Shown: piece by piece, positions 41,740-61,709 of the stretch
Numbering within the stretch: position 1 is the stretch's first letter
Layout of the letters: every line of letters begins with the position of its first letter
NCBI GenBank assembly: GCA_963845565.1
Contig: CAWJSJ010000002.1
Span: 1,568,001-1,632,000, forward strand
Source of the DNA: an uncultured Methylomirabilota bacterium
GTDB lineage: Bacteria; Methylomirabilota; Methylomirabilia; Methylomirabilales; 2-02-FULL-66-22
Reading direction: 5' to 3'
DNA: 64,000 nt
Made by a program: the position numbers and the translations under genes
The notes under the pieces: generated by a model
Database searches by the model: none
What the model was told of the DNA's origin: nothing
What the model saw: only the letters and a program-made list of their open reading frames with translations

Positions 41740-43011
41740 CTAGATGAATTTTCGTACTGCCCGCTTCTTCCATATCATCGGCAGGATGAGGTTCAGGACA
41801 TCGTCCACGGTGATGATCCCGAGCAACTCACCCTCGCCGCCCACCACCGGCAGGGCCAACAGGTTGTACTTGGTCTGAAGCTCCGCGACCTCGCGCAGTG
41901 CGGTGTCCGGTCGGACGCTGACCACCTCGGCGTGCATGAGCTGCTCCAGGCGCTGGCCCGGATCGGCCAAGATCAGCTCGCGAAGGCTGAACACGCCCAG
42001 CAAGCGTTCCTGATGGTCCGTCACGTACAGGTAGTAGATGGTCTCGGCGTCCTTGGCCTCCTCGCGGATCCGCTTGATCGCCTCACCCGCCGTGAGCGCC
42101 GGGCGGAAGGCCACGTGTTCTGTGGTCATCAGGCCGCCGGCGGTGTCCTCCTCGTGTTCGAGGAGCTCCTCGACCTCCTGGGCCTCGGCCGGTTCCATGG
42201 TCTCGAGCAGCTCCTCGGCCTTGGCCTCTGGCAGGTCGCTCAGGATGTCCGCCGCCTCGTCCGGCTCCATCTCCTCCAGGATGTCCGCCGCCTTTTCCGG
42301 CTCCATCATCTGGACCATGGAGGCCTGGACCTCGGGCTGGGCCTCGGTGATGGTCTCGGCCGCGGTGGCTTCGTCCAGCGTCGCCAGCACGGCGGCTCGC
42401 TCGCCGGGCGTCAGCTCTTCCATGATGTCGGCGATGTCGGCGGGGTGAAGCTTGGCCAGCTTGGTGTACACCGCGTGCCGCTTGGCCCGGCTGAGCTCGG
42501 TCTCGATCGGGTCCACCACCTCCCAGGGGACCACGTCGTGGGGGAGGGGCTTCCCGAACAGGCCGGCCAACCGTTCGGCGAATCCCTCGGAGCGGAGGTG
42601 CCGCAGGATGCCCCGCAGACCCCCTTCGATCCCCGTGACCTGGAGGCCGCCCTCGAATTCGGCGAGCTCGATGTCGTTGACCCGGACCACCTTCTTTCGC
42701 GCCGTGTCCACGACCTTCTTGTCCAGGACGGTCTTTCCCAGGGGAACCTCCTCGGCCCGGAGTGCCACGGGGCTGAGGCCTGCGAGGGGATTCCGCAACC
42801 GGACGGGCCGGTCGGTGGTCTCGGGCACCTCGGCGACGCTGGCCCAGGGGAGAATCCACTCGTCGCGATCCGGCCGGCGGAGGCTGAATTTGGTCACCTG
42901 CGGCCGGGTCCCGAGCGGGAGGACAAAGAGATCCTCGAGGCGCCCGATCTCGGTCCCCTCGGAATCGTGGACGGGGCGGTGCCGGAGCTGGGTGAAGGAC
43001 AGGGAAGGCAT
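41740..43011 (-). CDS. Soluble MgtE N-terminal + CBS-pair protein with PRC-barrel-like N-terminus
   Basis: LHPADIAD, MEPDEAADIL, EDTAGGLMTTE, YNLLALPVV...GIITVDD; no TM domain. Confidence 0.88.
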   Translation of the reverse strand: MPSLSFTQLRHRPVHDSEGTEIGRLEDLFVLPLGTRPQVTKFSLRRPDRDEWILPWASVAEVPETTDRPVRLRNPLAGLSPVALRAEEVPLGKTVLDKKVVDTARKKVVRVNDIELAEFEGGLQVTGIEGGLRGILRHLRSEGFAERLAGLFGKPLPHDVVPWEVVDPIETELSRAKRHAVYTKLAKLHPADIADIMEELTPGERAAVLATLDEATAAETITEAQPEVQASMVQMMEPEKAADILEEMEPDEAADILSDLPEAKAEELLETMEPAEAQEVEELLEHEEDTAGGLMTTEHVAFRPALTAGEAIKRIREEAKDAETIYYLYVTDHQERLLGVFSLRELILADPGQRLEQLMHAEVVSVRPDTALREVAELQTKYNLLALPVVGGEGELLGIITVDDVLNLILPMIWKKRAVRKFI

Positions 43012-43022
43012 GGCGGTCCGAT

Positions 43023-43661
43023 CTATGCGTCCGGTGGTTGAGAGGCGTGACGGTCGGTGGACTGAATCTCGTCCCAGGAGACTCGCAGGCGAATCCAGCC
43101 GCGGGCCGGCTCGACCCGGTCCACACACTCCCACCGGATCACGTGGTGGTGGAGCCGCGTGTGCAGCGGCCGCAGCAGAGCCAAGAGGCCCCAGTGAAAA
43201 CCGAGGCGGGTCAGGAATCCGCGGATGCCGGTGTCCATCCCCCAGAGGCACAGCGTCCCGTCGGAGAACGCCATGGTGATGTCGTTCACCCGCTGGAGTT
43301 TGGACCCGCGGCAATCCACGATCTGCTGGTCCAGGATGTGTTTGTGGAGCAGGACCTCGGTACCGCCCAGGGTGGCCGGGCCAAGATCCTGGCTGGTCTG
43401 CCGCAGGCGGATGGAACGGGGCTCCAGCGAGGCGACCAGCGCCCAGGGGACGACAAGTGGCTTCCCGGTACCATTGGCCGGAACCTGTCGTCCGAATCGG
43501 TGGGGCCGGACGACCAAATGCCGAACGCAGGCGTGTTCTGGGGTGGGGTTGACCGGGTCGGTGGACAGATCCAGCAGGGCGCCGATCGGAAAGCCGTCGC
43601 AATCCACCACTGGCTTGTGGAGAAGATCTCGATAGAAACTGACGTCGCGGCGGCTGGCCAT
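43023..43661 (-). CDS. PRC-barrel-like protein homologous to the N-terminal half of the downstream MgtE-N protein
   Basis: EVLLHKHILDQQIVD..G.K..RVNDI aligns with EVPLGKTVLDKKVVD...K..RVNDI. Confidence 0.72.
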   Translation of the reverse strand: MASRRDVSFYRDLLHKPVVDCDGFPIGALLDLSTDPVNPTPEHACVRHLVVRPHRFGRQVPANGTGKPLVVPWALVASLEPRSIRLRQTSQDLGPATLGGTEVLLHKHILDQQIVDCRGSKLQRVNDITMAFSDGTLCLWGMDTGIRGFLTRLGFHWGLLALLRPLHTRLHHHVIRWECVDRVEPARGWIRLRVSWDEIQSTDRHASQPPDA

Positions 43662-43747
43662 GCCGTTGACAACCCTTCCGATGCATCGGCCCCGGGAAAC
43701 GTGCCCAGGGCAGGCGATTTTACATGCCGGGATCACCCATGCGATTA

Positions 43748-43847
43748 GGAGCCGTTACGAAATACCTTGTCCATTTTTTGGAATTTCGTTACGGCTCCTT
43801 ATGCCGTTTCGAAATTTCTCCGGTCAAATTATTCTTTGGCAACGGCT
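43748..43847 (+). mobile_element. Family B ~100-bp element
   Basis: GGAGCCGTTACGAAAT...ATTTCGTTACGGCTCC...GGCAACGGCT. Confidence 0.8.
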
Positions 43848-44451
43848 CAGGAAGGCGAGATGCCCTCCGATTGGTCCCTTGTACCGCCCCACTTCAGACC
43901 TGTCAACCCCCATTCTGGCCGTTTCCGGCCCGATGCGAGAATTCTCTCGGGCCCCGTGGCCTGAAAGCTGGCGCACTGAGATCCAACAAGGCGTCACCAC
44001 TGTTCACGAGAATCCGAGCGTACGACTGAAGCACAGAAGGTGTCGGAAACTTTCATCGCAAGGTCGGGACCGTCCGTCGAGTTTACACCTCCTGTTTTTA
44101 CGACGCGCCTAACGCGCAACGAATCATCAAGATTGCGTTCCACGTCAGTAGATGGGCGCGAAGGCGTCTCGGGTCGTCAGAGACGGCGTCGGGTTTTCTT
44201 ACATTTCTGGAATCATACGGAAACCAGGCCTCGTGCGCTGCGCATCGAGAAAATCCAGATAACACGTATAGTTGCATCACGCCAGAAGCGTCCCTGAACG
44301 CTATCGCATGAAATATGCATAACGAATGGTTGATTTCTCGTCAACGGACGACAGATGGTGGAGCGTTCGTAACTATAGGTCTTTGAGGTTATCAAGAAGA
44401 TTGGGGAACCGAAAAAAGGCATGGACGGATAGCCGCGAAGAGGAGAACGCC

Positions 44452-45093
44452 ATGAGACGGGCCCTGACGGCGGCCATGTTCGTGTCGTTGATGCTGGCTA
44501 TTGCGGCGCCTTGGGCGGAAGCGCTCTTCTCATGCGAACCGTATATTGCAATCAACTTTGTGCCCTCGTCGCAGACTGTTAACGTCGGCGACCCCCTCAG
44601 CGTTGCACTGCAGATATCCGGATTATCATCTCGACTATGGGGGACCGGCGCCCCATCACTCGGCGGGTTTGACCTCGACGTCACGTTCGACCCAAGCATC
44701 TTGAAGTTGAGCAATGTTGTATTCGGCGACCCCAAACGTGGAGATCAACTCGATCTCTTCGGGTTGGGGAGTATCAAGCTTACCGATCTCGGCGTTGGCA
44801 CCGTGAACCTCTTCGAGCTCTCCGTGAACTCGGCGTCAGTTCTGAATTGGCTTCAGGCCCCAAAGTTCACATTGGCCACGCTCTACTTCGATCCCATCTC
44901 GGTTGGATACAGCCCGCTTGAGTTCTCCGATTTTCTATTCGCCGACGCCCAAGGCTCGAAACTCGTCCCCGACCATGTGGGCCACGGGTCTGTCAATGTC
45001 GCCCCCGTCCCCGAGCCCGCCACGCTCCTGTTGCTCTCATCCGGACTCGCGGGATTAGGCCTCGCGGCCTGGAAGCGTCGTCGCCAGGGCTGA
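44452..45093 (+). CDS. PEP-CTERM protein with cohesin-like beta-sandwich domain
   Basis: Signal peptide; PSSQTVNVGD..SV.L.I, GFDLDVTFDPSILK, TLATLYF.....G.SPL.F; C-terminus VPEPATLLLL-TM-KRRR. Confidence 0.85.
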   Translation: MRRALTAAMFVSLMLAIAAPWAEALFSCEPYIAINFVPSSQTVNVGDPLSVALQISGLSSRLWGTGAPSLGGFDLDVTFDPSILKLSNVVFGDPKRGDQLDLFGLGSIKLTDLGVGTVNLFELSVNSASVLNWLQAPKFTLATLYFDPISVGYSPLEFSDFLFADAQGSKLVPDHVGHGSVNVAPVPEPATLLLLSSGLAGLGLAAWKRRRQG

Positions 45094-45487
45094 GGCCCTG
45101 GTTTTTCGTACCCCAAGGGAATGATCGAAACTGCCGGTTCCGCCGCCCAGCGTTCGTGCTGCTGCACGGCAGGCGGGAATGGGGTGCGTGTGTGTCTTCG
45201 CGGTGTTCGTGCCGCGTGGCGCAAGCCCTTGAAGACAGCTGGCGGCTGGTAGGGCGAGTTTTTTCTTCTTCACGCAGTTCCTCGGAAGGTCCTTCCCCTC
45301 ACCATTACTCCCATTCCACGGACCGTTTTCCGATCGGCGCACACCCCTTTGGGCTAGGGCAATCTCATACACGTCGCCACGTGGGTGCCTTGTTCTCCAG
45401 GCTCGTCAGGAATAGGTGTGGCATGAACGGATGAAGCCTGTCGACCATTTCATCATTGGCCGAACAGCGTTGTAAGGGGAGACGGCA

Positions 45488-48400
45488 ATGGATACCACCG
45501 GGAAATTCAGCTTGCGCGTCATTCTCTTGGTCATGCTACTGGGGCTGTTCGGTCAAGCTGCCCACGCGGCGGTCGTCTGCGACGTCAATAACGACGGCGT
45601 CATCAACCTCACCGACATCAATCTTATCATCGCGGCTCGCAATAAGCCCGCAACGGGTCCGAACGATCCGCGCGATGCCGATCACGATGGGACAATCACG
45701 GTGCTGGACGCCCGTATCTGCGTGACCAGGTGCACCCTCCCCGGGTGCGCCGTCAGTGGGAATAGCCCGCCAACAGCAAATGCGGGCCCGGACCAGACGG
45801 TCGCATTGGGAGCGACCGTTACCCTGAACGGCTCCGGTTCGAGCGACCCGGATGGCAACTCGCTGGTCTATTCGTGGTCCTTCGTTTCCACGCCTGCCGG
45901 GAGCTCCACCTCGCTCCAGAACCCCACTTCAATCAACCCCCGCTTTGTCGTTGACGTTGCCGGCCCGTATGTTGTGCGACTCATCGTCAATGATGGAACT
46001 GTCGACAGCGCGCCCGATGATGTCCAGATCTCGACGATCAACTCGCGGCCGATCGCGAACGCCGGACCACATCAGACCGTGTTCGTCGAGACGACCGTGA
46101 CCTTGGACGGCTCGGGTTCGAGTGATCCCGACGGCGACCCACTCACGTTCACATGGTCGCTGGACAGCCTGCCGCTGGAGAGTACGACGACACTTCAGAA
46201 TATCCACAGCGTCAACCCGACGTTCGTTGCCGATACGCCGGGCACGTATATCGCCCAACTGATCGTCAACGACGGCAAGGTCGATAGTGCCCCGGCAACG
46301 GTCACCATTGATACGCAGAACTCTGCCCCGGTCGCCAATGCCGGGCCGAACCAGACGGTCGCGGTGGGCGCGACCGTGCAATTGAACGGCGCGAACTCCA
46401 CGGACGTCGACGGCGACCCGCTCACCTACAAGTGGTCGCTCACCACCAAGCCGACCGGAAGCACGGCGGCGCTGTCGGCGACCAGCATCGTCAACCCGAC
46501 GTTCGTTGCCGATACGCCGGGCACGTATATCGCCCAACTGATCGTCAACGACGGCAAGGTCGATAGTGCCCCGGCAACGGTCACCACCACGACACTCAAC
46601 ACCCCGCCGGTCGCCAATGCCGGGCCGAACCAGACGGTCGCGGTGGGCGCGACCGTGCAATTGAACGGCGCGAACTCCACGGACGTCGACGGCGACCCGC
46701 TCACCTACAAGTGGTCGCTCACCACCAAGCCGACCGGAAGCACGGCGGCGCTGTCGGCGACCAGCATCGTCAACCCGACGTTCGTTGCCGATACGCCGGG
46801 CACGTATATCGCCCAACTGATCGTCAACGACGGCAAGGTCGATAGTGCCCCGGCAACGGTCACCACCACGACACTCAACACCCCGCCGGTCGCCAATGCC
46901 GGGCCGAACCAGACGGTCTTCACGGGTAACATAGTCCAACTCAACGCCAGCGCCTCCGCCGATGCGGATGGCAATCCGCTGACCTACCAGTGGTCCTTCG
47001 CCAGCGCGCCAACAGGCAGCACGGCTATCCTGTCCAATCCGACCACGATCAGCCCGACCTTCACGGCCGACGTCTTCGGTACATACGTTGTCCAGTTGAT
47101 TGTGAACGACGGGTTCGTCAATAGCGCCCCCGTGACGGTCACGATCTCCACCCAGAACTCCGCCCCCGTCGCGAACGCAGGACCAAACCAGACGGTCGCA
47201 GCCGGCGGCACCGTCCAACTTGACGGCAGTGCCTCCTCGGACGTGGATGGCAACGCACTCCGCTTCAGATGGTCTCTACTCAGCACGCCGGCTGGAAGTT
47301 CGGCCACGCTGTCTGCGACCAATCTCGTCAACCCAACCTTTGTCACCGATCTAACTGGAACCTACGTCGCGCAACTGATCGTCAACGACGGGTTTGTCGA
47401 AAGCATCCCGGCGACCGTGACGGTTACGGTGACGGCGGGCACGCCGCCCCTGGCCGCCACGCTAGTGAGTCCGAACGGGACCGTGAGTACGGCCACCCCG
47501 ACCTACACCTGGAACGCCGTATCCGGCGCCACCTGGTATGAACTCTGGGTGACCGACAGCGCCCAGGCGGGGAAGGTCAAGCAGTGGGTGACCGCCGCCC
47601 AGGCGGGGTGCGCGGCCGGCACAGGGGCCTGCAGTTATACGCCCAGCACGGCCCTCGCGACCGGCGCGGCGACGTGGTGGATCCAGACGTGGAACAGTCT
47701 GGGCTACGGGCCGTGGAGTACCGGGATGGCCTTCACGGTGACGGCGGGCACGCCGCCCCTGGCCGCCACGCTAGTGAGTCCGAACGGGGCCGTGAGTACG
47801 GCCACCCCGACCTACACCTGGAACGCCGTATCCGGCGCCACCTGGTATGAACTCTGGGTGACCGACAGCGCCCAGGCGGGGAAGGTCAAGCAGTGGGTGA
47901 CCGCCGCCCAGGCGGGGTGCGCGGCCGGCACAGGGGCCTGCAGTTATACGCCCAGCACGGCCCTCGCGACCGGCGCGGCGACGTGGTGGATCCAGACGTG
48001 GAACAGTCTGGGCTACGGGCCGTGGAGTACCGGGATGGCCTTCACGGTGACGGCGGGCGCCCCCGTTATCACCCTCGTGAATCCCAACACCGGTCCGCAG
48101 GGCGCGACCAACCTCAACGTGGCCGTCACCGGCCAGAACACCAACTGGGTCCAGAATACCACCACGGCGAGCGTCGGCGCCGGGATCACGGTGAACAGCG
48201 TCACGGTGGCTAGCGTCACCAGCCTGACGGCCAACCTCACCATCGCGGCCGACGCGGCGACGGGTGCCCGCAGTCTCACCGTCACCACCAACGCCGAAAT
48301 CGTCACCCTGGCCAACGCCTTCACGGTGACGGCGGGGCCATCCGACCTCACAATCACCAAGACCCACACCGGCACCTTTTCCCAAGGCCAGGACGGAGCG

Positions 48401-51400
48401 ACATACAGCATCACGGTGAGCAACATCGGCCCCGGCCCCACGGCTGGAACCGTGACGGTGACCGAGACCGTGCCGACCGGTTTGACCGCGACGGGCATCG
48501 CGGGCACCGGCTGGACCTGTGCGCAGCCGGCGGGCCCCTGCACCCGAAGCGACCTCCTGGCCAGTGGCGGCAACTATCCCCCGATCAATCTGACGGTGAA
48601 TGTGGCCAATAGTGCGCCGGCCAGCGTGACCAACACGGCGACGGTGGCGGGAGGCGGGGAACTCAACACTGCCAACAACGCGGCGAGTGATGTGACGACG
48701 ATCGGAAGCGGGCCCGATCTCACGATCGCAAAGACCCACACTGGGAACTTCACGCAGGGCCAGACTGGGGCAACTTACGCCATCACCGTGAGAAACGTCG
48801 GCGCAGGTCCGACCGCCGGAACCGTGACGGTGACCGACACACTCCCGACCGGCCTCACGGCGACCGCCTTCGGCGCCGGCCCCACCGACGGCTGGAACTG
48901 CACCCTGACGCCGCTGTCCTGTGAGCGGAGCGGCGCCCTGGCCGCGGGGCAGAGCTATCCCGCGATCACCCTCACCGTCACCGTCGCCAGCAACGCCCCG
49001 GCCAACGAGACCAACACGGCAACCGTGGCGGGCGGCGGAGACGTGAACCCGAATAACAATACGGCCACGGACCCAACGACGATTCTTCCGGCGGCCAACC
49101 TGGCGCCCACCCTCGACCTGATCGCCGACCGGTCGATCCTCGAGGATGCCGGTCCGCAGACCGTCAACCTCACCGGCATCAGCGCGGGTCCGAACGAGAC
49201 CCAGGTTCTGACGGTGAGTGCCACTTCGAACAACCTGGCGCTGATCCCAAATCCCACGGTGACCTACACGAGTCCGAATGCCACGGGCAGCCTCGCCTTC
49301 ACCCCGGTGGCGAACGCCAGTGGGGCGGCTACGATCACGGTAACTGTCCAGGATAACGGCGGGACCGCCAACGGCGGCGTGGACACGTTCGTCCGCACCT
49401 TCACCGTGACCGTCACCGCGGTCAACGACGCCCCGACCCTCGACGCGATCGGCAACCTGAGCATCGCCGAGAACGCCGGCCCACAGACGGTCAACCTCAC
49501 CGGCATCAGGGCGGGCCCGAGGGAGACCCAGTCCTGACGGTGACCGCGACCTCGAACAACCTGGCGCTGATCCCCGATCCCACGGTGACCTACACCAGCC
49601 CGAACGCCACCGGCAGCCTCGCCTTCACCCCGGGGGCGGGGCAGAGCGGCAGGGCCACCATCACGGTGACGGTGCGACGACGGCGGCACGGCCAACGGGG
49701 GCGTGAACACCGTCACCCGCACCTTCACGGTGAGCGCGGTGCGGTCAACGATCCGCCGATCCTCGACCTGATCGCCGACCGGACGGTCATCGAGGACGCC
49801 GGCCCGCAGACGGTCACCCTCACCGGCATCAGCGCGGGCCCGAACGAGACCCAGGTTCTGACGGTGACGGCGACTTCGAACAACCTGGCGCTGATCCCGG
49901 ATCCCACGGTGACCTACACCAGTCCGAACGCCACGGGCAGCCTCGCCTTCACCCCGGTGGCGAACGCCAGTGGGGCGGCTACGATTACGGTGACTGTCCA
50001 GGATGACGGTGGCACGGCCAACGGCGGGGTGGACACGTCGTGCGGACGTTCACGGTGACGGTGACTGCGGTCAACGATCCGCCGACGCTGGATCTCGTCG
50101 GGCCCCTGACCGTCAACGAGGACGCCGGCCCGCAGACGGTGACCCTCACGGGCATCAGCGCCGGGTCCGCAACGAGAGCCAGACGCTGACCGTGACGGCG
50201 ACGTCCGAGCAACCCGGCGCTGATCCCGAACCCGACGGTGACCTACACCAGCCCGAACGCGACCGGCACCCTGACCTTCACCCCGGTGGCGAACGCCATT
50301 CGGGGCGGCGACGATCACGGTGACGGTCACCGATGACGGCGGAACGGCCAACGGCGGCGTGAACACGGTCGTCCGCACCTTCACGGTGACGGTGACGGCG
50401 GTCAACGACGCCGCCGACGCTGGATGCGATCGGCAACCTGAGCATCGCCGAGAATGCCGGCCCGCAGACGGTCAACCTCACCGGCATCAGCGCGGGCCCG
50501 AACGAGACCCAGGTCGCTGACCGTGACCGCGACCTCGAACAACCTGGCGCTGATCCCCAACCCCACCGTGACCTACACCAGCCCGAACGCGACCGGCAGC
50601 CTCACCTTCACCCCGGTGGCGGGCCAGAGCGGTAGTGCCACCGTGACGGTGACCGTGCAGGATAATGGCGGCACGGCCAACGGGGGCGTGAACACTGTCA
50701 CCCGGACGTTCACGGTGACGGTGACGGCGCTGCCCGTCGTCACGATCACCGCCACGGACGCCAACGCCGCGGAGACCAATTTGGATCCGGGGGTGTTCAC
50801 GGTGAGTCGAACTGGCTCGACGACGAGCGCTCTTACCGTAAGCTACACGATCGGGGGCATGGCGACTAACAGCACCGACTATCAGAACCTGACAGGGACC
50901 GTTACCATCGCTGCCGGACAGGCTTCCAATACCATCACGATCACGCCAATCGACGACAGCGTCTTCGAAGGTCCGGAAACCGCCATTCTCACCCTTGCCG
51001 CGAACGCGGCGTACACTATTGGCGCACCGAGTGCTGCGACCGTGACGATCGCAGACAACGATACGCTGGGGACCATCACGTTGCCGACCCTGCCAACCGA
51101 CGTCGGGGCGGGGCTCCAGCGCGGTGCCTTCACGGGGGACCTGGGCGCGCCGGCCCCAACTGGAGGGGTGACCGTCCGAATCCAGAGCAGTAACGCCGCC
51201 GTGGTCCTGGTTTCACCCAACGCCACCACCGCGGGCACGGCCTTCATCGACATCGCGAGGACCGCAGGGCAACAGAGCTTCACCTACTACGTCCAGGGAG
51301 TGGAGGGGCAGGCGGGGAACGCCGCGACGCTCACCGCGTCGGCCACGAACTTCACGAGTGGCACCGGTGGCGTGAACGTGCGCCAGCCAGGGGTGGATAT

Positions 51401-54400
51401 CCTTGACCTGTCGGAAACCCCGACCACGCTCTCCGCCGATGACCCGTTCTACGTGCGCCTCGGTTGGGCCGAGCCAGGCGATACCACGGTGCGCAACGTC
51501 CAGGAAATCCGCGCCGGCGGGGTGCCCATCACGGCGAACCTGAGTCTCATCAACAGCAACCCGGCCGGGGTAGCCCAGCTCACGACCTTGGCCGGCTCCG
51601 CCCAGACGCGCACCGTCACCATCGCCGTCGGGTCGGCGACGTCTCCCGGCACCGTGGCTGACGGCGGTGTAGCCTTCGACGCGCTCCTTCCCGGAACCGT
51701 CCAGGTCCAGGCCACCATCCCAGGTTTCGTGACCACCGGTGTGGGGACGAGAAGTATCACGGTGACTGGCCCCGACCTGGCGATCTCCAAGGCCCACACC
51801 GGCAACTTCACTCAGGGCCAGACGGGGGCCACGTACACGATTACGGTCTCCAACAGCGGGAGTGCTGCCACGAGCGGAACAGTAACCGTGACCGATACGC
51901 TGCCGACGGGCCTGACCGCAACGGCTATCGCAGGAACGGGTTGGAGTTGTACGCTCGGCACGCTCACCTGTACCCGCAGCGACGCCTTGGCGGTCGGCGG
52001 GAGCTATCCGGCCCTCACCCTCACCGTGAATGTGGCGGCCAACGCTCCGGCCAGTGTGACGAACACGGCGACTGTTTCGGGGAACGGCGACACCAACGCG
52101 GCCAACAACACCGCCAGTGACGTGACGGCGATCACGCCAGTTGCCGACCTGACGATCACCAAGACCCACACGGGCAGCTTCACGCAGGGCCAGACTGGGG
52201 CGACGTACACGATCACCGTGGGGAACGCCGGCCCCGGCCCGACAAGCGGGACCGTGACCGTGACCGATACTCTTCCGACGGGACTCACGGCCACGAACAT
52301 CAGCGGCGGATCCGGCTGGAACTGCACCCTCGGGACCCTGACATGCACTCGTAGCGACGTTCTGCAGCCGGGTACCAATTACTCGCAGATTCTTCTAACG
52401 GTGAACGTCGCCAGCAACGCCCCGGCCAGCGTGACCAACACGTGCGACCGTGGCGGGCGGCGGGGAAGCCAACACCGCAAACAACACGGCCACGGATCCA
52501 ACAACGGTGACGCCGGTCGCCACGGCCGACCTGGCGGTGACCAAGACCGCGAGCACCCTGACCCCCTCGGTGGGGCAGAACGTCACCTTCACCGTGACCG
52601 TGACGAATAGTGGCCCCGCCAACGCCACCGGGGTTGCGGTGACGGATTTGCTCCCGTCTGGGTACACCTTCGTTGGGGTCGCCCCCAGCGTAGGGACTTA
52701 CAACAGCACCACCGGGTTCTGGAGCCTGGGGTCTCTGGCCAACGCCGCGAGCGCCACGCTCGGGCTCACCGGCACGGTCCTCGCCACGGGCACCTACATC
52801 AACACGGCCACCATCACCGCGTCGACCCCCACGGACCCGAACGCGGCGAACAACAGCGCCACCGTGACGGTAACGCCGGTCGCCCAGGCCGACCTCACGA
52901 TCTCGAAGACCCACACCGGTAACTTCACCCAGGGCCAGATCGGGGCCACCTACACGCTCGCCGTGTCCAACATCGGCTCCGGCCCGACCACCGCACCCGT
53001 GACGGTGACCGACACCGTGCCGACCGGCCTGACGGCGACCGCCCTCGCGGGCACCGGTTGGACCTGCACGCAGCCGGCGGGTCCCTGCACCCGGAGCGAC
53101 GCCCTCGCTGCCAGCGCCAGCTATCCGGCGATCACGTTGACGGTCAACGTGGCGGCCAACGCTCCGGCCAATGTAACCAACACGGCAACCGTGGCGGGCG
53201 GCGGGGACGCGACTCCCGGCAACAACACGGCGAGCAACCCGACGACGATCCTTGCGTCGTCCGCCGATATCGCCGTGACCAAGACGGTCAACAATCCCGT
53301 TCCCGTAGTCGGAACGAACGTCACGTTCACTATCACAGTCACCAACACCGGTCCGTCGAACGCCACGGGAGTGCAGATCACCGATCAGCTTCCGAACGGT
53401 TATCTGTTTGCCTCATCGACCGCGAGTCAGGGCGCGTACACCAATACCACCGGGATTTGGAGTGTCGGGAATCTGAACGCCGCACAAAGCGCATCGCTGC
53501 AGGTTGTGGCGACGGTCGTAGCCGGTGGGACGTACACGAATACAGCAACCAGGACCGCATCTTCTCCGACGGATACCAACGCCGGAAACGACGTTGCGAC
53601 GGCAACCGTCGCTCCGTCGTATCGCGGGCCCACGGCTGTCCCCGGCTCGAACCAGACCGCTAACGAGGGTGCGCAGGTTTGCTTTAACGGGAGTGGGTCA
53701 ATACCTGGCGATTGGCCGATCACGACATACTCCTGGAGCTTCGGCGACGGCGGCACCGCTTTCGGGTTAACTCCGTGCCACATCTATGCGGATAATGGCG
53801 TCTACACCGTCACCCTCACGGTGACCGACTCCATCGGGGCCATCAACAGCGCCGGACTTACGGTTACGGTCAATAATGCCGTACCGACCGTCAATGCCGG
53901 ACAAGATCGGGTGGTTGCGGTGGAGACCCCTCAACTTTAACGGCACCTTCACCGATCTCGGAACGAACGACGGCCCGTATACCGTTAGCTGGGATTTCGG
54001 CGACGGCACTGCGCCGGTCACCGGAACGCTCACCCCAACGCACGAGTTCGAGACAGGCGGCACGTACACGGTGACCTTGTCAGTCACCGACAAGGACGGC
54101 GGCGTCGGAACCGATACAGCCACAGTCAAGGTCATGAACACCGGTCCCCAGTTCTTCTTCTCCGGCCAGGCGGGCACCTACACCACGCCGCTCAACGCCG
54201 GGACCGGGACCCGGGTCCAGGGCTACGTACAGCTCGCGGCCAACCCCACCGCCCCGGTAAACGTCACCCTCACCTCGGCGAACCCGGCGGTGCTGACGCT
54301 GGCCCCCTCCAACACCACCACGGCCGGGACCGGGAGCCTCACCGTCACCATCCCGACGAATAGCAACTACGTCCTCTTCGACCTCGTCGGCGGCCCCACC

Positions 54401-57400
54401 GCCGCGGAGCCCCCGAAGTTGCACGGGCCCACGGCCGTCGCCCGCGATACGGCCGGGAACCTCTACATCGCCGACCGCGACGGCTACCGGGTCCGCAAGG
54501 TCACCGCCGCCGGCATCCTCTCCACCATCGCCGGCACCGGCACGGCGGGCTACAGCGGCGACGGCGGCCTCGCCACCGCCGCGCAGTTCCAGTACCCGAT
54601 GGGCATAGCGGTGGACGGGAGCGGCAACGTCTACATCGCCGACTACAACGACCACCGGGTCCGGAAGATCACTGCGGCCACCGGGATCATCTCCACCATC
54701 GCCGGCACCGGCACGGCGGGCTACAGCGGCGACGGTGGCCAAGCCACCAGCGCCCGGCTCTACAGCCCCAACGGGGTCCGCGTCGCCGCCAGCGCCCTCT
54801 ACATCGCCGACTCCAACAACGACCGGATCCGGAAGGTGGACCTCGCCACCGGGATCATCACCACCGTGGCCGGCACCGGCACGGCCGGCTACAGCGGCGA
54901 CGGCGGCCTCGCCACCGCCGCCCAGCTCTACACCCCGTACAATGTCGCCCTGGATGCGGCGAACAACCTGTACATCGCGGACTACGGCAACCAGCGGATC
55001 CGCAAGGTCGACGCCGCCACCGGGATCATCACCACCATCGCCGGCACCGGCACGGCGGGCACCACGGGGGACGGCGGCCCGGCCACCAGCGCCCAGATCT
55101 ACTACCCGACCGGGGTGGCGGTAGCCGAGGGCGGCACCGTCGTCTACCTCGCCGACTACTACAACGACCGGATCCGGAAGGTGGATGCCACCGGCACCAT
55201 CACCACCTATGCCGGCGGCGGCAACAAGCTGGGGGACGAGGGGCCGGCCACCGAGGCGTACGTCAACGGCCCCTACAGCCTCAGCGCGGATACCGCCGGC
55301 AACCTCTACATCGCCGCATACGGCGAATCCCGCATCCGCCAGATCGACACCGGCGGCTTCATCCACACCCTGGCCGGCACCGGGGAGGCGGGCTTCAGCG
55401 GGGACGGCAGCGTCGCCACGGGGGTGACGCTCACCGCCACGGCGGGCGGCTTCACCGACGCGATCATCCCGGTCCGGGTGGGGCAGACCACGTGGACGAT
55501 CAGCGTCGCCACCGACCTCACGACCTTGACCACCACCACGCCCGTCACCGTCCAGGCGTCGATCCCCAACGTCGGCAGCGGGCAGCGGCTGGCGGCTGCC
55601 ACCACCGTTACGCTCGGCAGCACCAACGCGGCGGTCCTGACGGTGCCGACCAGCGTGGCCATCGCCAATAACGCGACCTCCGGGGCGGTCACCGCCAGCA
55701 CGCACAACGTCACCGGCACGGCCCAGATCACCGCCGGTGCCGCCAACGGGATCGCCGCCGGCATCTCGCCCGTCGTCAACGTGCGGGGTCCCCAGTTCTT
55801 CTTCTCCGGCCAGGCGGGCACCTACACCACGCCGCTCAACGCCGGGACCGGGACCCGGGTCCAGGGCTACGTACAGCTCGCGGCCAACCCCACCGCCCCG
55901 GTAAACGTCACCCTCACCTCGGCGAACCCGGCGGTGCTGACGCTGGCCCCCTCCAACACCACCACGGCCGGGACCGGGAGCCTCACCGTCACCATCCCGA
56001 CGAATAGCAACTACGTCCTCTTCGACCTCGTCGGCGGCCCCACCGCCGCGGAGCCCCCGAAGTTGCACGGGCCCACGGCCGTCGCCCGCGATACGGCCGG
56101 GAACCTCTACATCGCCGACCGCGACGGCTACCGGGTCCGCAAGGTCACCGCCGCCGGCATCCTCTCCACCATCGCCGGCACCGGCACGGCGGGCTACAGC
56201 GGCGACGGCGGCCTCGCCACCGCCGCGCAGTTCCAGTACCCGATGGGCATAGCGGTGGACGGGAGCGGCAACGTCTACATCGCCGACTACAACGACCACC
56301 GGGTCCGGAAGATCACTGCGGCCACCGGGATCATCTCCACCATCGCCGGCACCGGCACGGCGGGCTACAGCGGCGACGGTGGCCAAGCCACCAGCGCCCG
56401 GCTCTACAGCCCCAACGGGGTCCGCGTCGCCGCCAGCGCCCTCTACATCGCCGACTCCAACAACGACCGGATCCGGAAGGTGGACCTCGCCACCGGGATC
56501 ATCACCACCGTGGCCGGCACCGGCACGGCCGGCTACAGCGGCGACGGCGGCCTCGCCACCGCCGCCCAGCTCTACACCCCGTACAATGTCGCCCTGGATG
56601 CGGCGAACAACCTGTACATCGCGGACTACGGCAACCAGCGGATCCGCAAGGTCGACGCCGCCACCGGGATCATCACCACCATCGCCGGCACCGGCACGGC
56701 GGGCACCACGGGGGACGGCGGCCCGGCCACCAGCGCCCAGATCTACTACCCGACCGGGGTGGCGGTAGCCGAGGGCGGCACCGTCGTCTACCTCGCCGAC
56801 TACTACAACGACCGGATCCGGAAGGTGGATGCCACCGGCACCATCACCACCTATGCCGGCGGCGGCAACAAGCTGGGGGACGAGGGGCCGGCCACCGAGG
56901 CGTACGTCAACGGCCCCTACAGCCTCAGCGCGGATACCGCCGGCAACCTCTACATCGCCGCATACGGCGAATCCCGCATCCGCCAGATCGACACCGGCGG
57001 CTTCATCCACACCCTGGCCGGCACCGGGGAGGCGGGCTTCAGCGGGGACGGCAGCGTCGCCACGGGGGTGACGCTCACCGCCACGGCGGGCGGCTTCACC
57101 GACGCGATCATCCCGGTCCGGGTGGGGCAGACCACGTGGACGATCAGCGTCGCCACCGACCTCACGACCTTGACCACCACCACGCCCGTCACCGTCCAGG
57201 CGTCGATCCCCAACGTCGGCAGCGGGCAGCGGCTGGCGGCTGCCACCACCGTTACGCTCGGCAGCACCAACGCGGCGGTCCTGACGGTGCCGACCAGCGT
57301 GGCCATCGCCAATAACGCGACCTCCGGGGCGGTCACCGCCAGCACGCACAACGTCACCGGCACGGCCCAGATCACCGCCGGTGCCGCCAACGGGATCGCC

Positions 57401-59074
57401 GCCGGCATCTCGCCCGTCGTCAACGTGCGGGGTCCCCAGTTCTTCTTCTCCGGCCAGGCGGGCACCTACACCACGCCGCTCAACGCCGGGACCGGGACCC
57501 GGGTCCAGGGCTACGTACAGCTCGCGGCCAACCCCACCGCCCCGGTAAACGTCACCCTCACCTCGGCGAACCCGGCGGTGCTGACGCTGGCCCCCTCCAA
57601 CACCACCACGGCCGGGACCGGGAGCCTCACCGTCACCATCCCGACGAATAGCAACTACGTCCTCTTCGACCTCGTCGGCGGCCCCACCGCCGCGGAGCCC
57701 CCGAAGTTGCACGGGCCCACGGCCGTCGCCCGCGATACGGCCGGGAACCTCTACATCGCCGACCGCGACGGCTACCGGGTCCGCAAGGTCACCGCCGCCG
57801 GCATCCTCTCCACCATCGCCGGCACCGGCACGGCGGGCTACAGCGGCGACGGCGGCCTCGCCACCGCCGCGCAGTTCCAGTACCCGATGGGCATAGCGGT
57901 GGACGGGAGCGGCAACGTCTACATCGCCGACTACAACGACCACCGGGTCCGGAAGATCACTGCGGCCACCGGGATCATCTCCACCATCGCCGGCACCGGC
58001 ACGGCGGGCTACAGCGGCGACGGTGGCCAAGCCACCAGCGCCCGGCTCTACAGCCCCAACGGGGTCCGCGTCGCCGCCAGCGCCCTCTACATCGCCGACT
58101 CCAACAACGACCGGATCCGGAAGGTGGACCTCGCCACCGGGATCATCACCACCGTGGCCGGCACCGGCACGGCCGGCTACAGCGGCGACGGCGGCCTCGC
58201 CACCGCCGCCCAGCTCTACACCCCGTACAATGTCGCCCTGGATGCGGCGAACAACCTGTACATCGCGGACTACGGCAACCAGCGGATCCGCAAGGTCGAC
58301 GCCGCCACCGGGATCATCACCACCATCGCCGGCACCGGCACGGCGGGCACCACGGGGGACGGCGGCCCGGCCACCAGCGCCCAGATCTACTACCCGACCG
58401 GGGTGGCGGTAGCCGAGGGCGGCACCGTCGTCTACCTCGCCGACTACTACAACGACCGGATCCGGAAGGTGGATGCCACCGGCACCATCACCACCTATGC
58501 CGGCGGCGGCAACAAGCTGGGGGACGAGGGGCCGGCCACCGAGGCGTACGTCAACGGCCCCTACAGCCTCAGCGCGGATACCGCCGGCAACCTCTACATC
58601 GCCGCATACGGCGAATCCCGCATCCGCCAGATCGACACCGGCGGCTTCATCCACACCCTGGCCGGCACCGGGGAGGCGGGCTTCAGCGGGGACGGCAGCG
58701 TCGCCACGGGGGTGACGCTCACCGCCACGGCGGGCGGCTTCGTCACCGGTGTCATCCCGGTGAGGGTGAATCAAACACAATTTGTCTTCTCGGGGTTGAG
58801 TACGACGATAAACAACGGGGTCACCGACACTTTCAATATCTATATCAATCACCCCAACATCGGGAATGTGCGAGCCGCAGCGACAACCGGTGTGGCCTTG
58901 ACGAGCAGCAATACCTCGGTTCTTGCCGACCCCGTGGCTGTGACCATCGCAAACAATACCACCAATGTGGCGGCATCGGTGACGGCAGCCGGACCAGGAA
59001 CGGCGACGCTGACGGCAAGCTCACCCGGCTCGGGGATCAATGCCGCCGGTTCGGCGACCATCACGGTGCCGTAA
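45488..59074 (+). CDS. Giant (~4,500 aa) secreted repeat protein / putative adhesin, split by frameshifts into ORFs 45488-49537, 49540-50058, 50454-52610, 52450-53940 and 53876-59074
   Basis: Signal peptide, dockerin-like module, 6 PKD-like, 2 FN3-like, Ig/IPT, 7 DUF11, 5 cadherin-like, Calx-beta, 2 PKD, 3 x (Ig + 6 NHL), terminal Ig; domain text continues across each frame change. Confidence 0.8.
46209..46918 (+). repeat. 279-bp tandem repeat (about 2.5 copies, PKD-like units)
   Basis: CCGGTCGCCAATGCCGGGCCGAACCAGACGGTC recurs every 279 bp. Confidence 0.9.
47427..48058 (+). repeat. 309-bp tandem repeat (2 near-identical copies)
   Basis: Shadow ORFs at 47584 and 47893 begin identically; protein differs at NGTVS/NGAVS. 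Confidence 0.9.
54143..58741 (+). repeat. 1,644-bp tandem repeat (about 2.8 copies)
   Basis: GGTCCCCAGTTCTTCTTCTCC at 54143, 55787 and 57431; shadow ORFs identical in each copy. Confidence 0.95.
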
Positions 59075-59110
59075 CAGGCAACCGTCACGCGAAGGGCTCA
59101 ATGCAAAGAA

Positions 59111-59149
59111 AGACACGAAAGGCCTCCGTTACGGAGGTCTTTCGTGTCT
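59111..59149. terminator. Strong hairpin downstream of the giant gene
   Basis: AGACACGAAAGGCCTCCG-TTA-CGGAGGTCTTTCGTGTCT, 18-bp stem; no clear U-tract. Confidence 0.6.
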
Positions 59150-59246
59150 AGTGATCTTCGACAAAAGGAGTTGACAGTCCGGGCGCGTGGGGGCTAGCGT
59201 GCCGTCTGCCGCTCCGGGCTATTCCCGGGGGTCGGAGGAGCGCAAC

Positions 59247-59615
59247 GTGGAGATCGTCAATCGAAGAGACAGCGCGCCGTTCGTCACCAAGGACGGGTCG
59301 GAGATCCGCTCGATTTTGGATCGGACCAATTCGAGCGCGGTCCACCAGAGCCTGGCGGAAGCCACGCTCCCGCCCGGCGCCGCCACGGAGGCGCACCGGC
59401 ATCCCCACACCGAGGAGATTTACTATATCCTGCGGGGCGCCGGCCAGATGACACTTGGGGCCGAGCAGCGAGAGGTCGGGCCGGGCGACGGCATCTTGAT
59501 CCCGCCGGGCACCCGCCACACGATCCAGAACGTCGGTCAGGAGCCACTGACGTTCCTCTGCTGCTGCGCACCGCCTTATGCGGATGAGGATACGGTGATG
59601 GGGCGTGAGGCGTGA
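59247..59615 (+). CDS. Cupin domain protein
   Basis: HRHPHTEEIYYILRG.G, IPPGTRH; GGAGGAG RBS before GTG. Confidence 0.9.
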   Translation: MEIVNRRDSAPFVTKDGSEIRSILDRTNSSAVHQSLAEATLPPGAATEAHRHPHTEEIYYILRGAGQMTLGAEQREVGPGDGILIPPGTRHTIQNVGQEPLTFLCCCAPPYADEDTVMGREA

Positions 59616-59650
59616 GAGCGTGAAGGGTGAGGCGTGAAACGTGAGGTGGG
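59603..59650. repeat. Heptamer tract (CGTGARR)
   Basis: gcgtgag gcgtgag agcgtgaa gggtgag gcgtgaa acgtgag. Confidence 0.6.
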
Positions 59651-59688
59651 AGGCGAGAAGGCGTTAGGAGCAAGGATCCTGACTTCCA

Positions 59689-59919
59689 TCAGGTTGCGCC
59701 CTGTTCGATGCGCGCGAAGACATCCATGACCGATCTCGCCGCGACCTCACCCCGATCATACGCGTCGATCCGGTCTTCCGCCTCGGCGGACCAGTGTTCG
59801 TCGATCGCCTTGCGTTCCGGGAGCAAGAACGTATCCAGGATTCGTTCGACCAGTTCGGCTTTCTCAAGGGGGGACAATTTCAACGCCTGAGCGAGAACCT
59901 CATGGGCCTGGGGTGACAT
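59689..59919 (-). CDS. Putative addiction-module component (TIGR02574-type antitoxin)
   Basis: 76 aa; ALKLSP.EKAELVERIL..., W..EAE.RI.AY.RGE. Confidence 0.8.
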   Translation of the reverse strand: MSPQAHEVLAQALKLSPLEKAELVERILDTFLLPERKAIDEHWSAEAEDRIDAYDRGEVAARSVMDVFARIEQGAT

Positions 59920-60002
59920 TTGCGCTCCCTTGTCCTCCGACGCCGCTCAAGGATGCGCGCCCAATTTCGCAACGCCATCCAACCGCGCCTGTCGGAACCT
60001 AG

Positions 60003-60154
60003 CAGGATGCGGAAAACCTCGCTTTTCCCCAGGCTGCTCAAAAGGGCCCAGATGCAAGGCGGAGTGCCGATGGCCGAGCGAGGCGTACTGGAAGTACGCC
60101 GCAGCGAGCGGCAAGGCGCTCCAACGTCGCAGATGGGCCTTTTTCAGCAGCCTG
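60003..60154 (-). mobile_element. Family A element, complete 152-bp copy
   Basis: CTAG|CAGGATGCGGAAAA...TTTTCAGCAGCCTG|CTAA. Confidence 0.87.
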
Positions 60155-60323
60155 CTAAACGGCGCCTTCATGGTACGGGCAGCGCCGGCAATTGTCCAGT
60201 GTCTTGCGGAGAGAGGCCCCCGCAAGTGGGAGACCGGGAGATCGGGTAATTGGGGAGCTTAGCAATCTGGCGATTGGGCGATGCAGCCTCTGCCAGTCCG
60301 GGCCGCATGTCGTGCTTCTCGCG

Positions 60324-61709
60324 TTATCGCTGCTTCAAGAGCCAATCGATGATTTCGGAGCCATCCCGTGGCCCCCTCTTCGTCCCGGGCGCGACGTCTT
60401 GCGGGGGCGCGGGAGGTCGGGTCCTCCGGGAGGATTTGACCTTCCCTTCCGTCGGGGGGGACGTGGGTTTCGTCTCTCCCAGCCCCTCCCTCTCCTTGGG
60501 CGGAGGTTCCGGAAGCACCCGTTCCGGACGCGGCTGTGCCTGCGAAGGTGGAGCCGGCAGCTCCGGCGCCCTCTTTTCGGATTCTTCCGCAGGCGCCGGT
60601 TCAGGGATCACCGTCTGACGTGGTTGCGGTTGGGGCGGCGGCTGGTACGTGTCCTCCGGGGCCCACCGAGGGTAGAGCACCCAGAATGACGCGGCGGCGA
60701 GCACGAGGAGCACGCCGACGATCGCGGTGACGATCCACCGCGTGCCCACCCGCGGACGCTGCGAGGGTTGTCCCCCGGCCTTGGCCGCCGTGGCCACGGG
60801 CCGACGTCCGCTGGTTGGCTTCCCCACTCGCCCCGCCCCTACCCGTTGCAGGAACTCGTGGACCACCTCGTTCGCGCTGTTCTGGCGCCATTTCGGCGCT
60901 TTCTCCAGCGCCCGCAGGATCTGGGCCTCGATCTCGACCGGGATCTCCGCCCGCAATGCCTTGGGTGGAGTCGGCGCGACCGAGAGGTGCATGGCCAGGA
61001 CGGCCTCGGACGTGGACCCGCGGAAGGGGACGACGCCTGTCAGCATTTGGTAGAGGACGATCCCGAAGGCATAGATGTCCGTCTGTTTGGTGATCTCCCG
61101 TCGTTGGATCTGCTCCGGAGCCGCATACGCCGGCGTGCGCGTGAGTTGCGTCGCGGGAACGAGGTGATCCATGGCCCCCGCGTTCTTCAACCGCGCCCGC
61201 TCGAAGCCGATGAGCTTCACGGTGTCCTTGTCCCCCAGGACCAGGACGTTCTTCGGGTGCACGTCCGTGTGGACAAGACTCGCATCATGGGCCGCGGTCA
61301 ATCCCTCGGCCATCTGGACGGCCACGGACAAGGCGCGGTCGATCTGGAGGACCCCTTTCTCCTGCCGCAGCACGTCGTGCAGGGTCCGTCCCTCGATCTG
61401 CTCCATCACGATGAAGAGGCTGCCATCGTCCGCTTGGTCGCAGTCGTACACTCTGACGATATGGGGTTGCGTCTTCGAGAGGGCTGCGACGGCCATCATC
61501 TGTCGATGGAGCCTCTCCACAAACTCCTTTCCCTTCGTAAACTCGCCCCGGAACAGCTTCACGACGAGCCCGGCCCCCGTCCCGTGCTGCTGGGCAAGGT
61601 ACGTCACCCCCAGGCTGCCCGTCGCGAGCCGGCGCGTCACGTGGTACTTGCCCTTGATCACCTGGCCGACCAAGGGGTCCGCGGCTCCCCCATCCCCCGT
61701 CCGCTCCAC
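60324..61709 (-). CDS. Membrane-anchored Hanks-type Ser/Thr kinase-like protein with degenerate catalytic motifs
   Basis: PHIVRVYD, FIVME, HTDVHPKN, AYAAPEQ, TDIYAFG; one TM; Pro-rich tail; GAGGAGG before GTG at 61709. Confidence 0.85.
   Translation of the reverse strand: MERTGDGGAADPLVGQVIKGKYHVTRRLATGSLGVTYLAQQHGTGAGLVVKLFRGEFTKGKEFVERLHRQMMAVAALSKTQPHIVRVYDCDQADDGSLFIVMEQIEGRTLHDVLRQEKGVLQIDRALSVAVQMAEGLTAAHDASLVHTDVHPKNVLVLGDKDTVKLIGFERARLKNAGAMDHLVPATQLTRTPAYAAPEQIQRREITKQTDIYAFGIVLYQMLTGVVPFRGSTSEAVLAMHLSVAPTPPKALRAEIPVEIEAQILRALEKAPKWRQNSANEVVHEFLQRVGAGRVGKPTSGRRPVATAAKAGGQPSQRPRVGTRWIVTAIVGVLLVLAAASFWVLYPRWAPEDTYQPPPQPQPRQTVIPEPAPAEESEKRAPELPAPPSQAQPRPERVLPEPPPKEREGLGETKPTSPPTEGKVKSSRRTRPPAPPQDVAPGTKRGPRDGSEIIDWLLKQR

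Follow-up and report, generated by a model that had tools for sequence, protein, structure and literature searches.

A PEP-CTERM protein with a predicted cohesin fold and a dockerin-bearing, adhesin-like giant protein form a recurrent gene pair in diderm bacteria

The cellulosome, in which dockerins bind cohesins, has as its defining feature a scaffoldin with at least two cohesins (PMC13487519; this and the other articles cited by PMC number were available in part, and what is said of them concerns those parts). Cohesin proteins can be anchored via SLH (S-layer homology) domains or by sortase (PMC9012536), a single cohesin and a single dockerin encoded by adjacent genes bind each other in Cellulosilyticum (PMC13487519), and dockerin repeats occur in giant proteins of Omnitrophota (PMC10066038). 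For PEP-CTERM proteins, transfer past the inner membrane has been proposed (PMC1569441), and the PEP-CTERM protein PepA has been linked to bound exopolysaccharide (PMC9850573). Here we describe a 64,000-nucleotide stretch of DNA (the window) from an uncultured Methylomirabilota bacterium (assembly GCA_963845565.1, contig CAWJSJ010000002.1, positions 1,568,001 to 1,632,000), in which a gene for a PEP-CTERM protein with a predicted cohesin fold (gene 1, 44452..45093) is followed by a giant, adhesin-like gene that opens with a dockerin (gene 2, 45488..59074). Both genes, and all features given below unless stated otherwise, are on the + strand. Bacteria of sludge, sediment and biofilms commonly carry PEP-CTERM proteins. 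To our knowledge, few of these proteins have an assigned molecular job, and non-cellulosomal cohesins and dockerins are mostly without known partners. The gene pair described here is real, widespread and apparently undescribed in print, and places a known kind of fold pair in a new setting; our literature search, which left most subscription journals outside its reach, returned no description of a PEP-CTERM cohesin paired with dockerin cargo.

Gene 1 encodes 213 residues: a likely Sec signal peptide (44452..44523; residues 1-24, judged by eye from the sequence, with a helix at 2-26 in the AlphaFold2 model), one cohesin-fold domain (44539..45006; residues 30-185, assigned by predicted structure and family profile) and a PEP-CTERM tail (45004..45090) made up of a VPEP motif, a transmembrane helix and a basic end. 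A preliminary description, made by a model from the sequence alone, had reported a signal-like start, cohesin-like text and a VPEP-TM-KRRR ending, all of which are seen in the sequence. The tail passes the cut-offs of both PF07589 (27.2 bits against 20.7) and TIGR02595. Gene 1 exceeds the cut-off of none of the named NCBIfam PEP-CTERM subfamilies, and among the proteins scanned no named NCBIfam subfamily covers the cohesin or the dockerin part.

Gene 1 is assigned to the cohesins on the strength of its family profile and predicted fold. The Pfam Cohesin model (PF00963) stays below its cut-off on gene 1 itself (E 0.084; 13.5 bits against 24.1). The search for relatives gave 102 homologues, and 54 of the 90 that were aligned match the same model at E <= 0.1 (best 9.1e-9); the family profile also matches the ScaB type II cohesin (E 3.3e-7). 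The AlphaFold2 model of the domain has a mean confidence score (pLDDT) of 92.9 and retrieved cohesins alone among the Foldseek matches listed (best E 6.5e-11). When it was compared with 48,161 chains by VIA-align, the top 20 were all cohesins (Z 16.7-11.4) and the next fold followed at 10.2; the best match, at Z 16.7, aligned 138 residues with a root-mean-square deviation (rmsd) of 2.1. As to subtype, sequence profiles put type II first, whereas structure comparison puts type I first.

Two calcium-loop repeats between cysteines had been claimed for the start of gene 2, and this was confirmed: the repeats occupy 45578..45748, flanked by Cys31 and Cys87, in a domain with two calcium-binding loops and four cysteines. 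They follow a likely Sec signal peptide (45488..45568; residues 1-27, again judged by eye from the sequence, hydropathy 2.98). Dockerin_1 (PF00404, cut-off 22.9) scores 23.0 bits in the whole open reading frame (ORF) and 29.3 bits on the domain alone, and 25 of 45 family members match it at E <= 0.01. The model of the 65-residue domain has a pLDDT of 94.4, and in VIA-align its top 16 matches were all dockerins (Z 7.0-2.9, next 2.3; best rmsd 2.0 over 53 aligned residues), the scores being modest because the domain is small. Of the comparison with known families and folds that the preliminary description had proposed, both predicted folds and the dockerin Pfam model came out as expected, the Pfam Cohesin match to gene 1 being the weak element. 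Annotation may have missed both families because most members lie near or below the Pfam cut-offs.

In a search of 1.84 billion representatives with the dockerin, 2,123 matches reached E <= 0.001. Among the best 150, identity across the domain is mostly 55-75%, and the domain usually stands directly after a signal peptide or at the extreme C-terminus of otherwise unrelated proteins. In 143 dockerin sequences, the aspartate at loop position 12 is invariant in both repeats, and the first cysteine and that of the last helix (Cys4/Cys51) are either both present (109) or both missing (34), with zero exceptions. This covariation points to a disulfide clasp. Conservation of Cys55/Cys60 was discarded as evidence, being imposed by the selection filter. 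When 32 other cargoes were scanned at E <= 1e-12, 19 matched non-catalytic families (Ig-like, PKD, DUF11, IgGFc-binding, laminin G, PASTA or similar), 13 matched nothing at that level and none matched a catalytic family. A hydrophobic C-terminal tail is absent from all 14 complete cargoes with an N-terminal dockerin. Some dockerin proteins are built differently. P0107, P0108, P0111 and P0126 hold two such dockerins each, some with little else, and are possible cross-linkers. In P0142, P0206 and P0211 the dockerin is succeeded by a Cys-Gly-Leu motif, a hydrophobic helix and a basic end resembling a Cys-type sorting tail, such that the plug, not the socket, would be the anchored partner.

The preliminary description had asked whether the pairing recurs in other genomes, and the adjacency proved to be conserved across phyla. 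A scan of GTDB genomes with a closer dockerin alignment yielded 164 confirmed matches, the best 79 loci of which (in 73 genomes) were analysed with a cohesin profile derived from homologues of gene 1 that had been chosen without regard to dockerins. A gene 1-type cohesin was present at 53 of the 79 loci, and at 47 it lay within 1 kb on the same strand, for which rough chance expectation is about 0.1% per locus. Where the dockerin is N-terminal (n=35), the cohesin gene is upstream in 21 cases and missing in 14; where it is C-terminal (n=37), the cohesin gene is downstream in 24, on the far side in 3 and missing in 10; five of the seven internal dockerins also have one. A cassette that becomes joined to new cargoes would be expected to show such placement beside the dockerin-coding segment, at either end of the cargo. 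A PEP-like motif with a hydrophobic stretch and basic tail was found on 49 of the 53 neighbouring cohesins (40 pass a strict filter, nine narrowly miss it), the other four tails looking broken. Adjacent pairs occur in Pseudomonadota, Desulfobacterota, Nitrospirota, Acidobacteriota, Myxococcota, Planctomycetota, Verrucomicrobiota, Bacteroidota and Methylomirabilota by our own phylum assignments, with one metagenome-assembled genome each for Verrucomicrobiota and Bacteroidota and two genomes (G000, the host, and G162) for Methylomirabilota. Cultured strains with adjacent pairs are Janthinobacterium sp. FT68W, Duganella callida, Methylocaldum sp. GT1BB and Lentisalinibacter salinarum.

A scan of metagenomes with close relatives of gene 1 gave four loci. 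L023 has the same synteny and is close kin (92% identical); L024 is truncated; at L025 and L026 no dockerin lies downstream, and the upstream sequence is short. A search of the ESM Atlas gave leads that were all below 0.9. A mirror-tree signal between cohesin and dockerin distances (Spearman 0.31, 0/5,000 permutations) was not counted, as shared ancestry explains it equally. Two further groups of loci were observed. A second PEP-CTERM family of about 265 residues is encoded directly after C-terminal dockerins at L070:8603-9388, L076:7046-7843, L091:10132-10941 and L095:3261-4070; these four sequences, the only ones available, gave a cohesin profile probability of 0.2 and no PDB sequence match, and the family could be an alternative dockerin receptor, judging from its position. 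In Gammaproteobacteria, frames of 430-490 residues with an N-terminal dockerin stand without a nearby cohesin at L034, L040, L041, L048, L049, L081 and L101, and in six of the seven genomes a cohesin match is lacking altogether.

Co-occurrence was assessed in evenly drawn genome samples. These were scored with alignment A5, which derives from paired loci and may favour paired cohesins; as scoring covered part of the candidates in each genome, counts are floors, and p-values overstate the association as related genomes are not independent. Among 250 Desulfobacterota genomes besides the centre, nine have the cohesin and seven the dockerin, all seven being shared (hypergeometric p 3e-12, or 9e-11 excluding G218, which was known beforehand), and 6 of 11 tailed cohesins adjoin a dockerin gene. 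In G757, 23 dockerin matches stand against two cohesins, with dockerin-tagged frames of up to 4,758 residues (part of loci L172-L200), and G218 and G594 have five for two; a local subtype bears extra cysteine in its linker. Among 299 Gammaproteobacteria, nine genomes have the cohesin and seven the dockerin; four share both, all four adjacent (p 1.3e-5), and in a fifth a weaker dockerin adjoins the cohesin. L128, L129 and L130, in three genomes without a cohesin, carry a dockerin subtype diverged in the second repeat. Among 201 Methylomirabilota, each domain occurs in three genomes, two of which share both in adjacent genes; the remaining dockerin lies on the edge of a contig, and the remaining cohesin is followed by a dockerin-like repeat of more classical type. 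At L005:3-2058 (G031), a divergent PEP-CTERM cohesin lies directly 5' of a gene whose classical-looking dockerin repeat is outside the subfamily. No full-length relative of gene 1 was found in 20 genomes of the same genus, and the cassette is accordingly patchy.

Beyond the dockerin, gene 2 reads as a long array of domains. Six PKD (K319L-like) domains (45764..47437; PF22352, six stretches) are followed by two Trp/Cys-containing repeats of about 104 residues and one more beta domain, recognised by reading the sequence and without Pfam match (47438..48343), two DUF11 domains (48344..49075; PF01345), five cadherin-like/Big_9 repeats (49106..50744), a Calx-beta domain (50739..51062; PF03160, E 1.2e-11), five further DUF11 domains (51774..53600) and two PKD domains (53631..54133). 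The gene closes with three near-identical 548-residue modules (54136..59071), each an NHL beta-propeller between beta-rich domains (TEN_NHL match, E 1.4e-101), the last ending in a plain beta domain. The three modules, 1,644 bp each, are in frame with DNA identities of 99.6% and 100%, which may stem either from recent tandem expansion or from the assembly itself. No catalytic family exceeded its cut-off in gene 2. The claim that the giant protein has no other anchor was borne out by family scans and hydropathy: it ends in ATITVP-stop at 59074, where the best 17-residue hydropathy is 1.02 and no hydrophobic stretch is present, and no sorting-tail or anchor family (autotransporter, type IX secretion system, LPXTG or a PEP-CTERM of its own) was reported for the last ORF.

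The host genome (5.36 Mb, 6 contigs, 98.7% completeness, 6.4% contamination) contains only one dockerin and only one cohesin-like match, the two lying 395 bp apart, a closeness beyond chance; no other dockerin client, which the preliminary description had asked about, was found. Its EF-Tu clusters at 90% identity with one named from candidate division NC10, a name equivalent to Methylomirabilota. Three Omp85 matches and two secretins mark the host as a diderm. One secretin is PilQ, above cut-off; the other sits in a type II secretion-like cluster at L202:9603-18297 (G000:C2:2675603-2684297) that comprises F, E, a PilM-like gene, the secretin and two pilin-like genes, all under their family cut-offs, and through which the giant protein might be exported. 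Five PEP-CTERM genes with very similar tails were identified in the host (C1:293614, C2:1613004, C2:1925641, C3:27292 and C5:615925). The best-matching labelled public sequencing runs are wetland metagenomes, and the one RNA run contains 0.05 of the words searched.

Taken together, the predicted folds, the tail, the missing second anchor and the gene linkage suggest that the gene 1 cohesin likely binds the gene 2 dockerin via calcium, tethering the adhesin-like protein to the envelope or to a polysaccharide matrix; calcium dependence, processing and final location are inferred. Both proteins would reach the periplasm via Sec by their signal-like N-termini. There the dockerin would fold round two calcium ions, clasped by a disulfide, as its loops and the cysteine covariation suggest. 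The cohesin would be held initially by its C-terminal helix until an exosortase, where present, cuts the tail and passes the protein to the outer envelope or matrix, as has been hypothesised in print for PEP-CTERM proteins. The anchor-less cargo would then clip on by its dockerin, with the Ig-like stalk and three NHL propellers pointing outward; the adhesin may be surface-exposed and the attachment releasable. As the socket-plug pair recurs in many Gram-negative phyla, it is probably a hitherto undescribed means of attaching secreted proteins to the envelope or slime matrix. The preliminary description is partly supported and understated the scope of the pair, having presented as a one-off what looks like a mobile tag-and-anchor cassette: the cohesin gene and the dockerin-coding segment would have been joined to many cargoes, and some genomes would serve many cargoes with one or two cohesins. 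We lean, with less assurance than for the tether itself, towards regarding the Cys-clasped dockerin as a portable N- or C-terminal sorting tag, by which proteins of 200 to >4,000 residues ride a PEP-CTERM cohesin in at least nine phyla, with one anchor for >20 giant clients in some Desulfobacterota.

Several observations weigh against this interpretation. The type I Ser/Thr recognition pair, placed by what we take to be its residue numbering, is absent from both repeats (Leu-Thr and Val-Leu here; the columns are R40%/mixed and V66%/L63% across the family). Its presence in both repeats is a criterion for dual-mode type I dockerins (PMC13487519); unequal repeats without it make one binding mode likelier than the type I dual mode, and no X-module, a type II feature, was found ahead of the N-terminal dockerin. 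Foldseek ranks dockerins first for the 65-residue model with probabilities of 0.85-1.00, yet all at E >= 0.05. No cohesin is near 26 of the 79 dockerin loci, and when 22 genomes with such loci were searched whole, 13 had no match and two had weak matches alone. In the Gammaproteobacterial sample, no dockerin lies within 1.5 kb of 3 of 8 small cohesins, and the cohesin is missing from 3 of 7 genomes that have the dockerin (one being the unpublished G296, the genome of L129). A different PEP-CTERM family takes the place of the cohesin at four loci, and at least three of 150 dockerin proteins (P0142, P0206 and P0211) possess a membrane tail of their own. The absent recognition pair, orphans of both kinds, the replaceable PEP-CTERM partner and the report that most non-cellulosomal modules have no known function (PMC5244752) would fit two proteins that do not bind at all, the dockerin-like module being a cap stabilised by calcium and disulfides, the cohesin-like protein binding, for example, polysaccharide, and the genes travelling together by shared regulation or on a mobile element. 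We regard this as very improbable, given that the PEP-CTERM family with precisely the known partner fold of dockerins is the neighbour at 47 of 79 loci, against five with other PEP-CTERM genes directly downstream, that the cohesin gene stays by whichever end of the cargo bears the dockerin, and that the Desulfobacterota co-occurrence holds even when the genes are far apart. The domains might also bind without the cohesin being the final anchor: it would act as an inner-membrane holder or periplasmic escort that captures tagged cargo for folding or hand-over to export and then releases it. PEP-CTERM topology does keep the domain periplasmic until the tail is cut (PMC1569441), the host has retained the pair and the type II secretion-like cluster with no exosortase to make that cut, and one or two cohesins for many cargoes, as in G757, G218 and G594, would suit an escort. 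Against this, 32 of 35 other genomes with the pair have an exosortase match, full-length in 30 (a count with no matched background), and the cargoes are stalk-like, lack any other anchor and would need one. Solved cohesin-dockerin pairs are, moreover, stable tethers. We consider the escort unlikely, though less so than an absence of binding, and the tether is favoured over both.

Whether the system has decayed in this strain is a separate question, and here the copy in the window is weaker than many of its relatives, the family-level case being strong. As assembled, the route in the host genome is incomplete. A protein of about 4,500 residues had been described, and the span does hold 4,529 codons; a single intact ORF was rejected, however, for the span is divided by 12 frame changes into ORFs at 45488-49537, 49540-50058, 50454-52610, 52450-53940 and 53876-59074, the first of which would give a 1,349-residue protein that retains the dockerin. 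Ten uncompensated indels fall between 49531 and 50515, in the cadherin-like/Big_9 repeats, and the other two frame changes are near 52445 (in the second DUF11 group) and 53935 (in the last PKD pair). No exosortase was found in the six contigs with PF09721, TIGR04178, a profile from 15 exosortases or tblastn, the preliminary description having asked for such a search, and a proven exosortase route was accordingly rejected for this host; PrsR is not above cut-off (best TIGR02915 score 437.7 against 502.6). The type II secretion-like cluster, the candidate by which a 4,500-residue protein would cross the outer membrane, falls under every GspD/E/F/G cut-off. There are three possible accounts: the assembly lacks an exosortase island, the tail is left uncut in the inner membrane, or the system is in decay in this strain. 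A relic, with the cargo gene truly broken and the sorting machinery lost, would account for the breaks, for the missing exosortase and PrsR, for an altered -24 GG upstream of gene 1 that is intact in a relative, and for near-identical NHL repeats free of breaks, which a simple polishing failure in repeats leaves unexplained; it would also be compatible with a tether at family level. Yet 10 of the 12 breaks are packed into 1 kb of tandem repeats while the 3' end has 5.1 kb of open frame, gene 1 is intact, as is the beginning of gene 2, both being conserved in the relative, and a 6-contig assembly could miss an exosortase island, 8 of 20 same-genus genomes having an exosortase match. Contigs of short reads from other public runs have the opposite indel at 8 of the 12 sites; as these contigs come from related strains, and possibly other repeat copies, they indicate that intact versions exist and do not tell the state of the source strain. 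On this evidence we are fairly confident that the breaks are assembly errors, and a decaying locus is a minority possibility.

Other features of the locus were also recorded. Upstream of gene 1 is a putative, degenerate sigma-54-like (-24/-12) element (44304..44319), recognised from the GG/GC pattern of PEP-CTERM promoters (PMC1569441, Fig. 5 legend) and forming a conserved island in an otherwise diverged upstream region; its -24 GG reads CG here and GG in L023. A terminator-like hairpin spans the gene 1 stop (45083..45102), with a stem conserved in L023 and a count no higher than chance (1 observed against 2.1 +/- 1.6 in shuffled sequence). RNA folding of the spacer between the genes showed nothing notable, and an Rfam search of 43000-60500 gave no match. 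A 17-pair hairpin 3' of gene 2 (59111..59149; z -4.75, with 0/200 shuffles folding as well) is a likely terminator, beyond which a probably unrelated cupin gene lies at 59187-59615. Five prime of gene 1, on the minus strand (41740-43736), are a magnesium-transporter-like CBS/PRC-barrel gene and a second, similarly built gene; this order recurs in L023, and no connection to the cohesin-dockerin cassette was seen.

If the tether is correct, the pairing gives a molecular job to a widespread PEP-CTERM family and partners to non-cellulosomal modules. It would explain how anchor-less giant adhesins are attached in diderms and would represent a general, non-covalent display route in Gram-negative bacteria. 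It would also offer a cohesin-dockerin pair native to Gram-negative envelopes, possibly disulfide-stabilised, that could be useful for surface display.

One of the closest described systems is ClcC/ClcD of Cellulosilyticum lentocellum (PMC13487519), a minimal two-gene system in which adjacent genes again encode the sole cohesin and the sole dockerin of the genome, with asymmetric dockerin repeats. It differs in that binding has been shown, the cohesin comes with a carbohydrate-binding module, the cargo is a cellulase and a PEP-CTERM tail is not mentioned in the available part of the article. The planctosome of freshwater Planctomycetes (PMC6461901) is likewise a hypothetical, non-cellulosomal cohesin-dockerin tether on a diderm surface; there, in a single lineage, a lamin-tail protein of 2,210 residues serves as anchor alongside an adaptor and peptidases, whereas here a 200-residue PEP-CTERM cohesin forms a two-gene cassette in many phyla. 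For Ca. Stygibacter of the Cloacimonadota (PMC8542988), cohesin-dockerin display outside Firmicutes has similarly been inferred, but through a multi-cohesin scaffoldin of 3,755 residues with a C-terminal attachment domain and enzymes as cargo. The accessible text of these two accounts and of that on Omnitrophota (PMC10066038) mentions no PEP-CTERM cohesin.

Gene 1 also resembles PepA and similar PEP-CTERM/exosortase proteins (PMC1569441, PMC9850573) in its signal peptide, single domain, PEP-CTERM tail and sigma-54-like upstream element. In the available passages no cohesin or dockerin partner is described for those proteins, and the word dockerin occurs 0 times in that of PMC1569441. The Archaeoglobus fulgidus cohesin (PDB 2xdh) shares the fold of gene 1 (Z 15.7). 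For archaeal pairs, including ANME proteins (PMC9012536, PMC5244752), binding has been verified according to PMC9012536 and surface attachment has been suggested, on an archaeal envelope; as far as the available parts of both articles go, no link to a PEP-CTERM tail or a two-gene cassette is mentioned.

Membership of a cellulosome was rejected for the window's pair, the genome having one cohesin, no multi-cohesin scaffold and no glycoside hydrolase on the dockerin. The closest functional parallels are nevertheless the cell-surface cohesins ScaE of Ruminococcus flavefaciens (PDB 2zf9) and OlpA, OlpC and SdbA of Clostridium thermocellum (3ul4, 4dh2 and 2bm3), which are alike in joining one cohesin and an envelope anchor to a large, dockerin-tipped client. 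Gene 1 matches 2zf9, 4dh2 and 3ul4 in fold at Z 11.7-15.5 and 2bm3 at E 4e-8, with identities of 15-16%. According to the protein, the four are fixed to the Gram-positive wall by a sortase signal or by SLH domains, whereas gene 1 has a PEP-CTERM tail and occurs in diderms. The cargo of gene 2 is also unlike cellulosomal clients, consisting of Ig, PKD and NHL domains with no catalytic Pfam match, and its dockerin has cysteine pairs. On our best reading of these comparisons, the pair would constitute a calcium-dependent cohesin-dockerin tether, the Gram-negative counterpart of the sortase-anchored ScaE.

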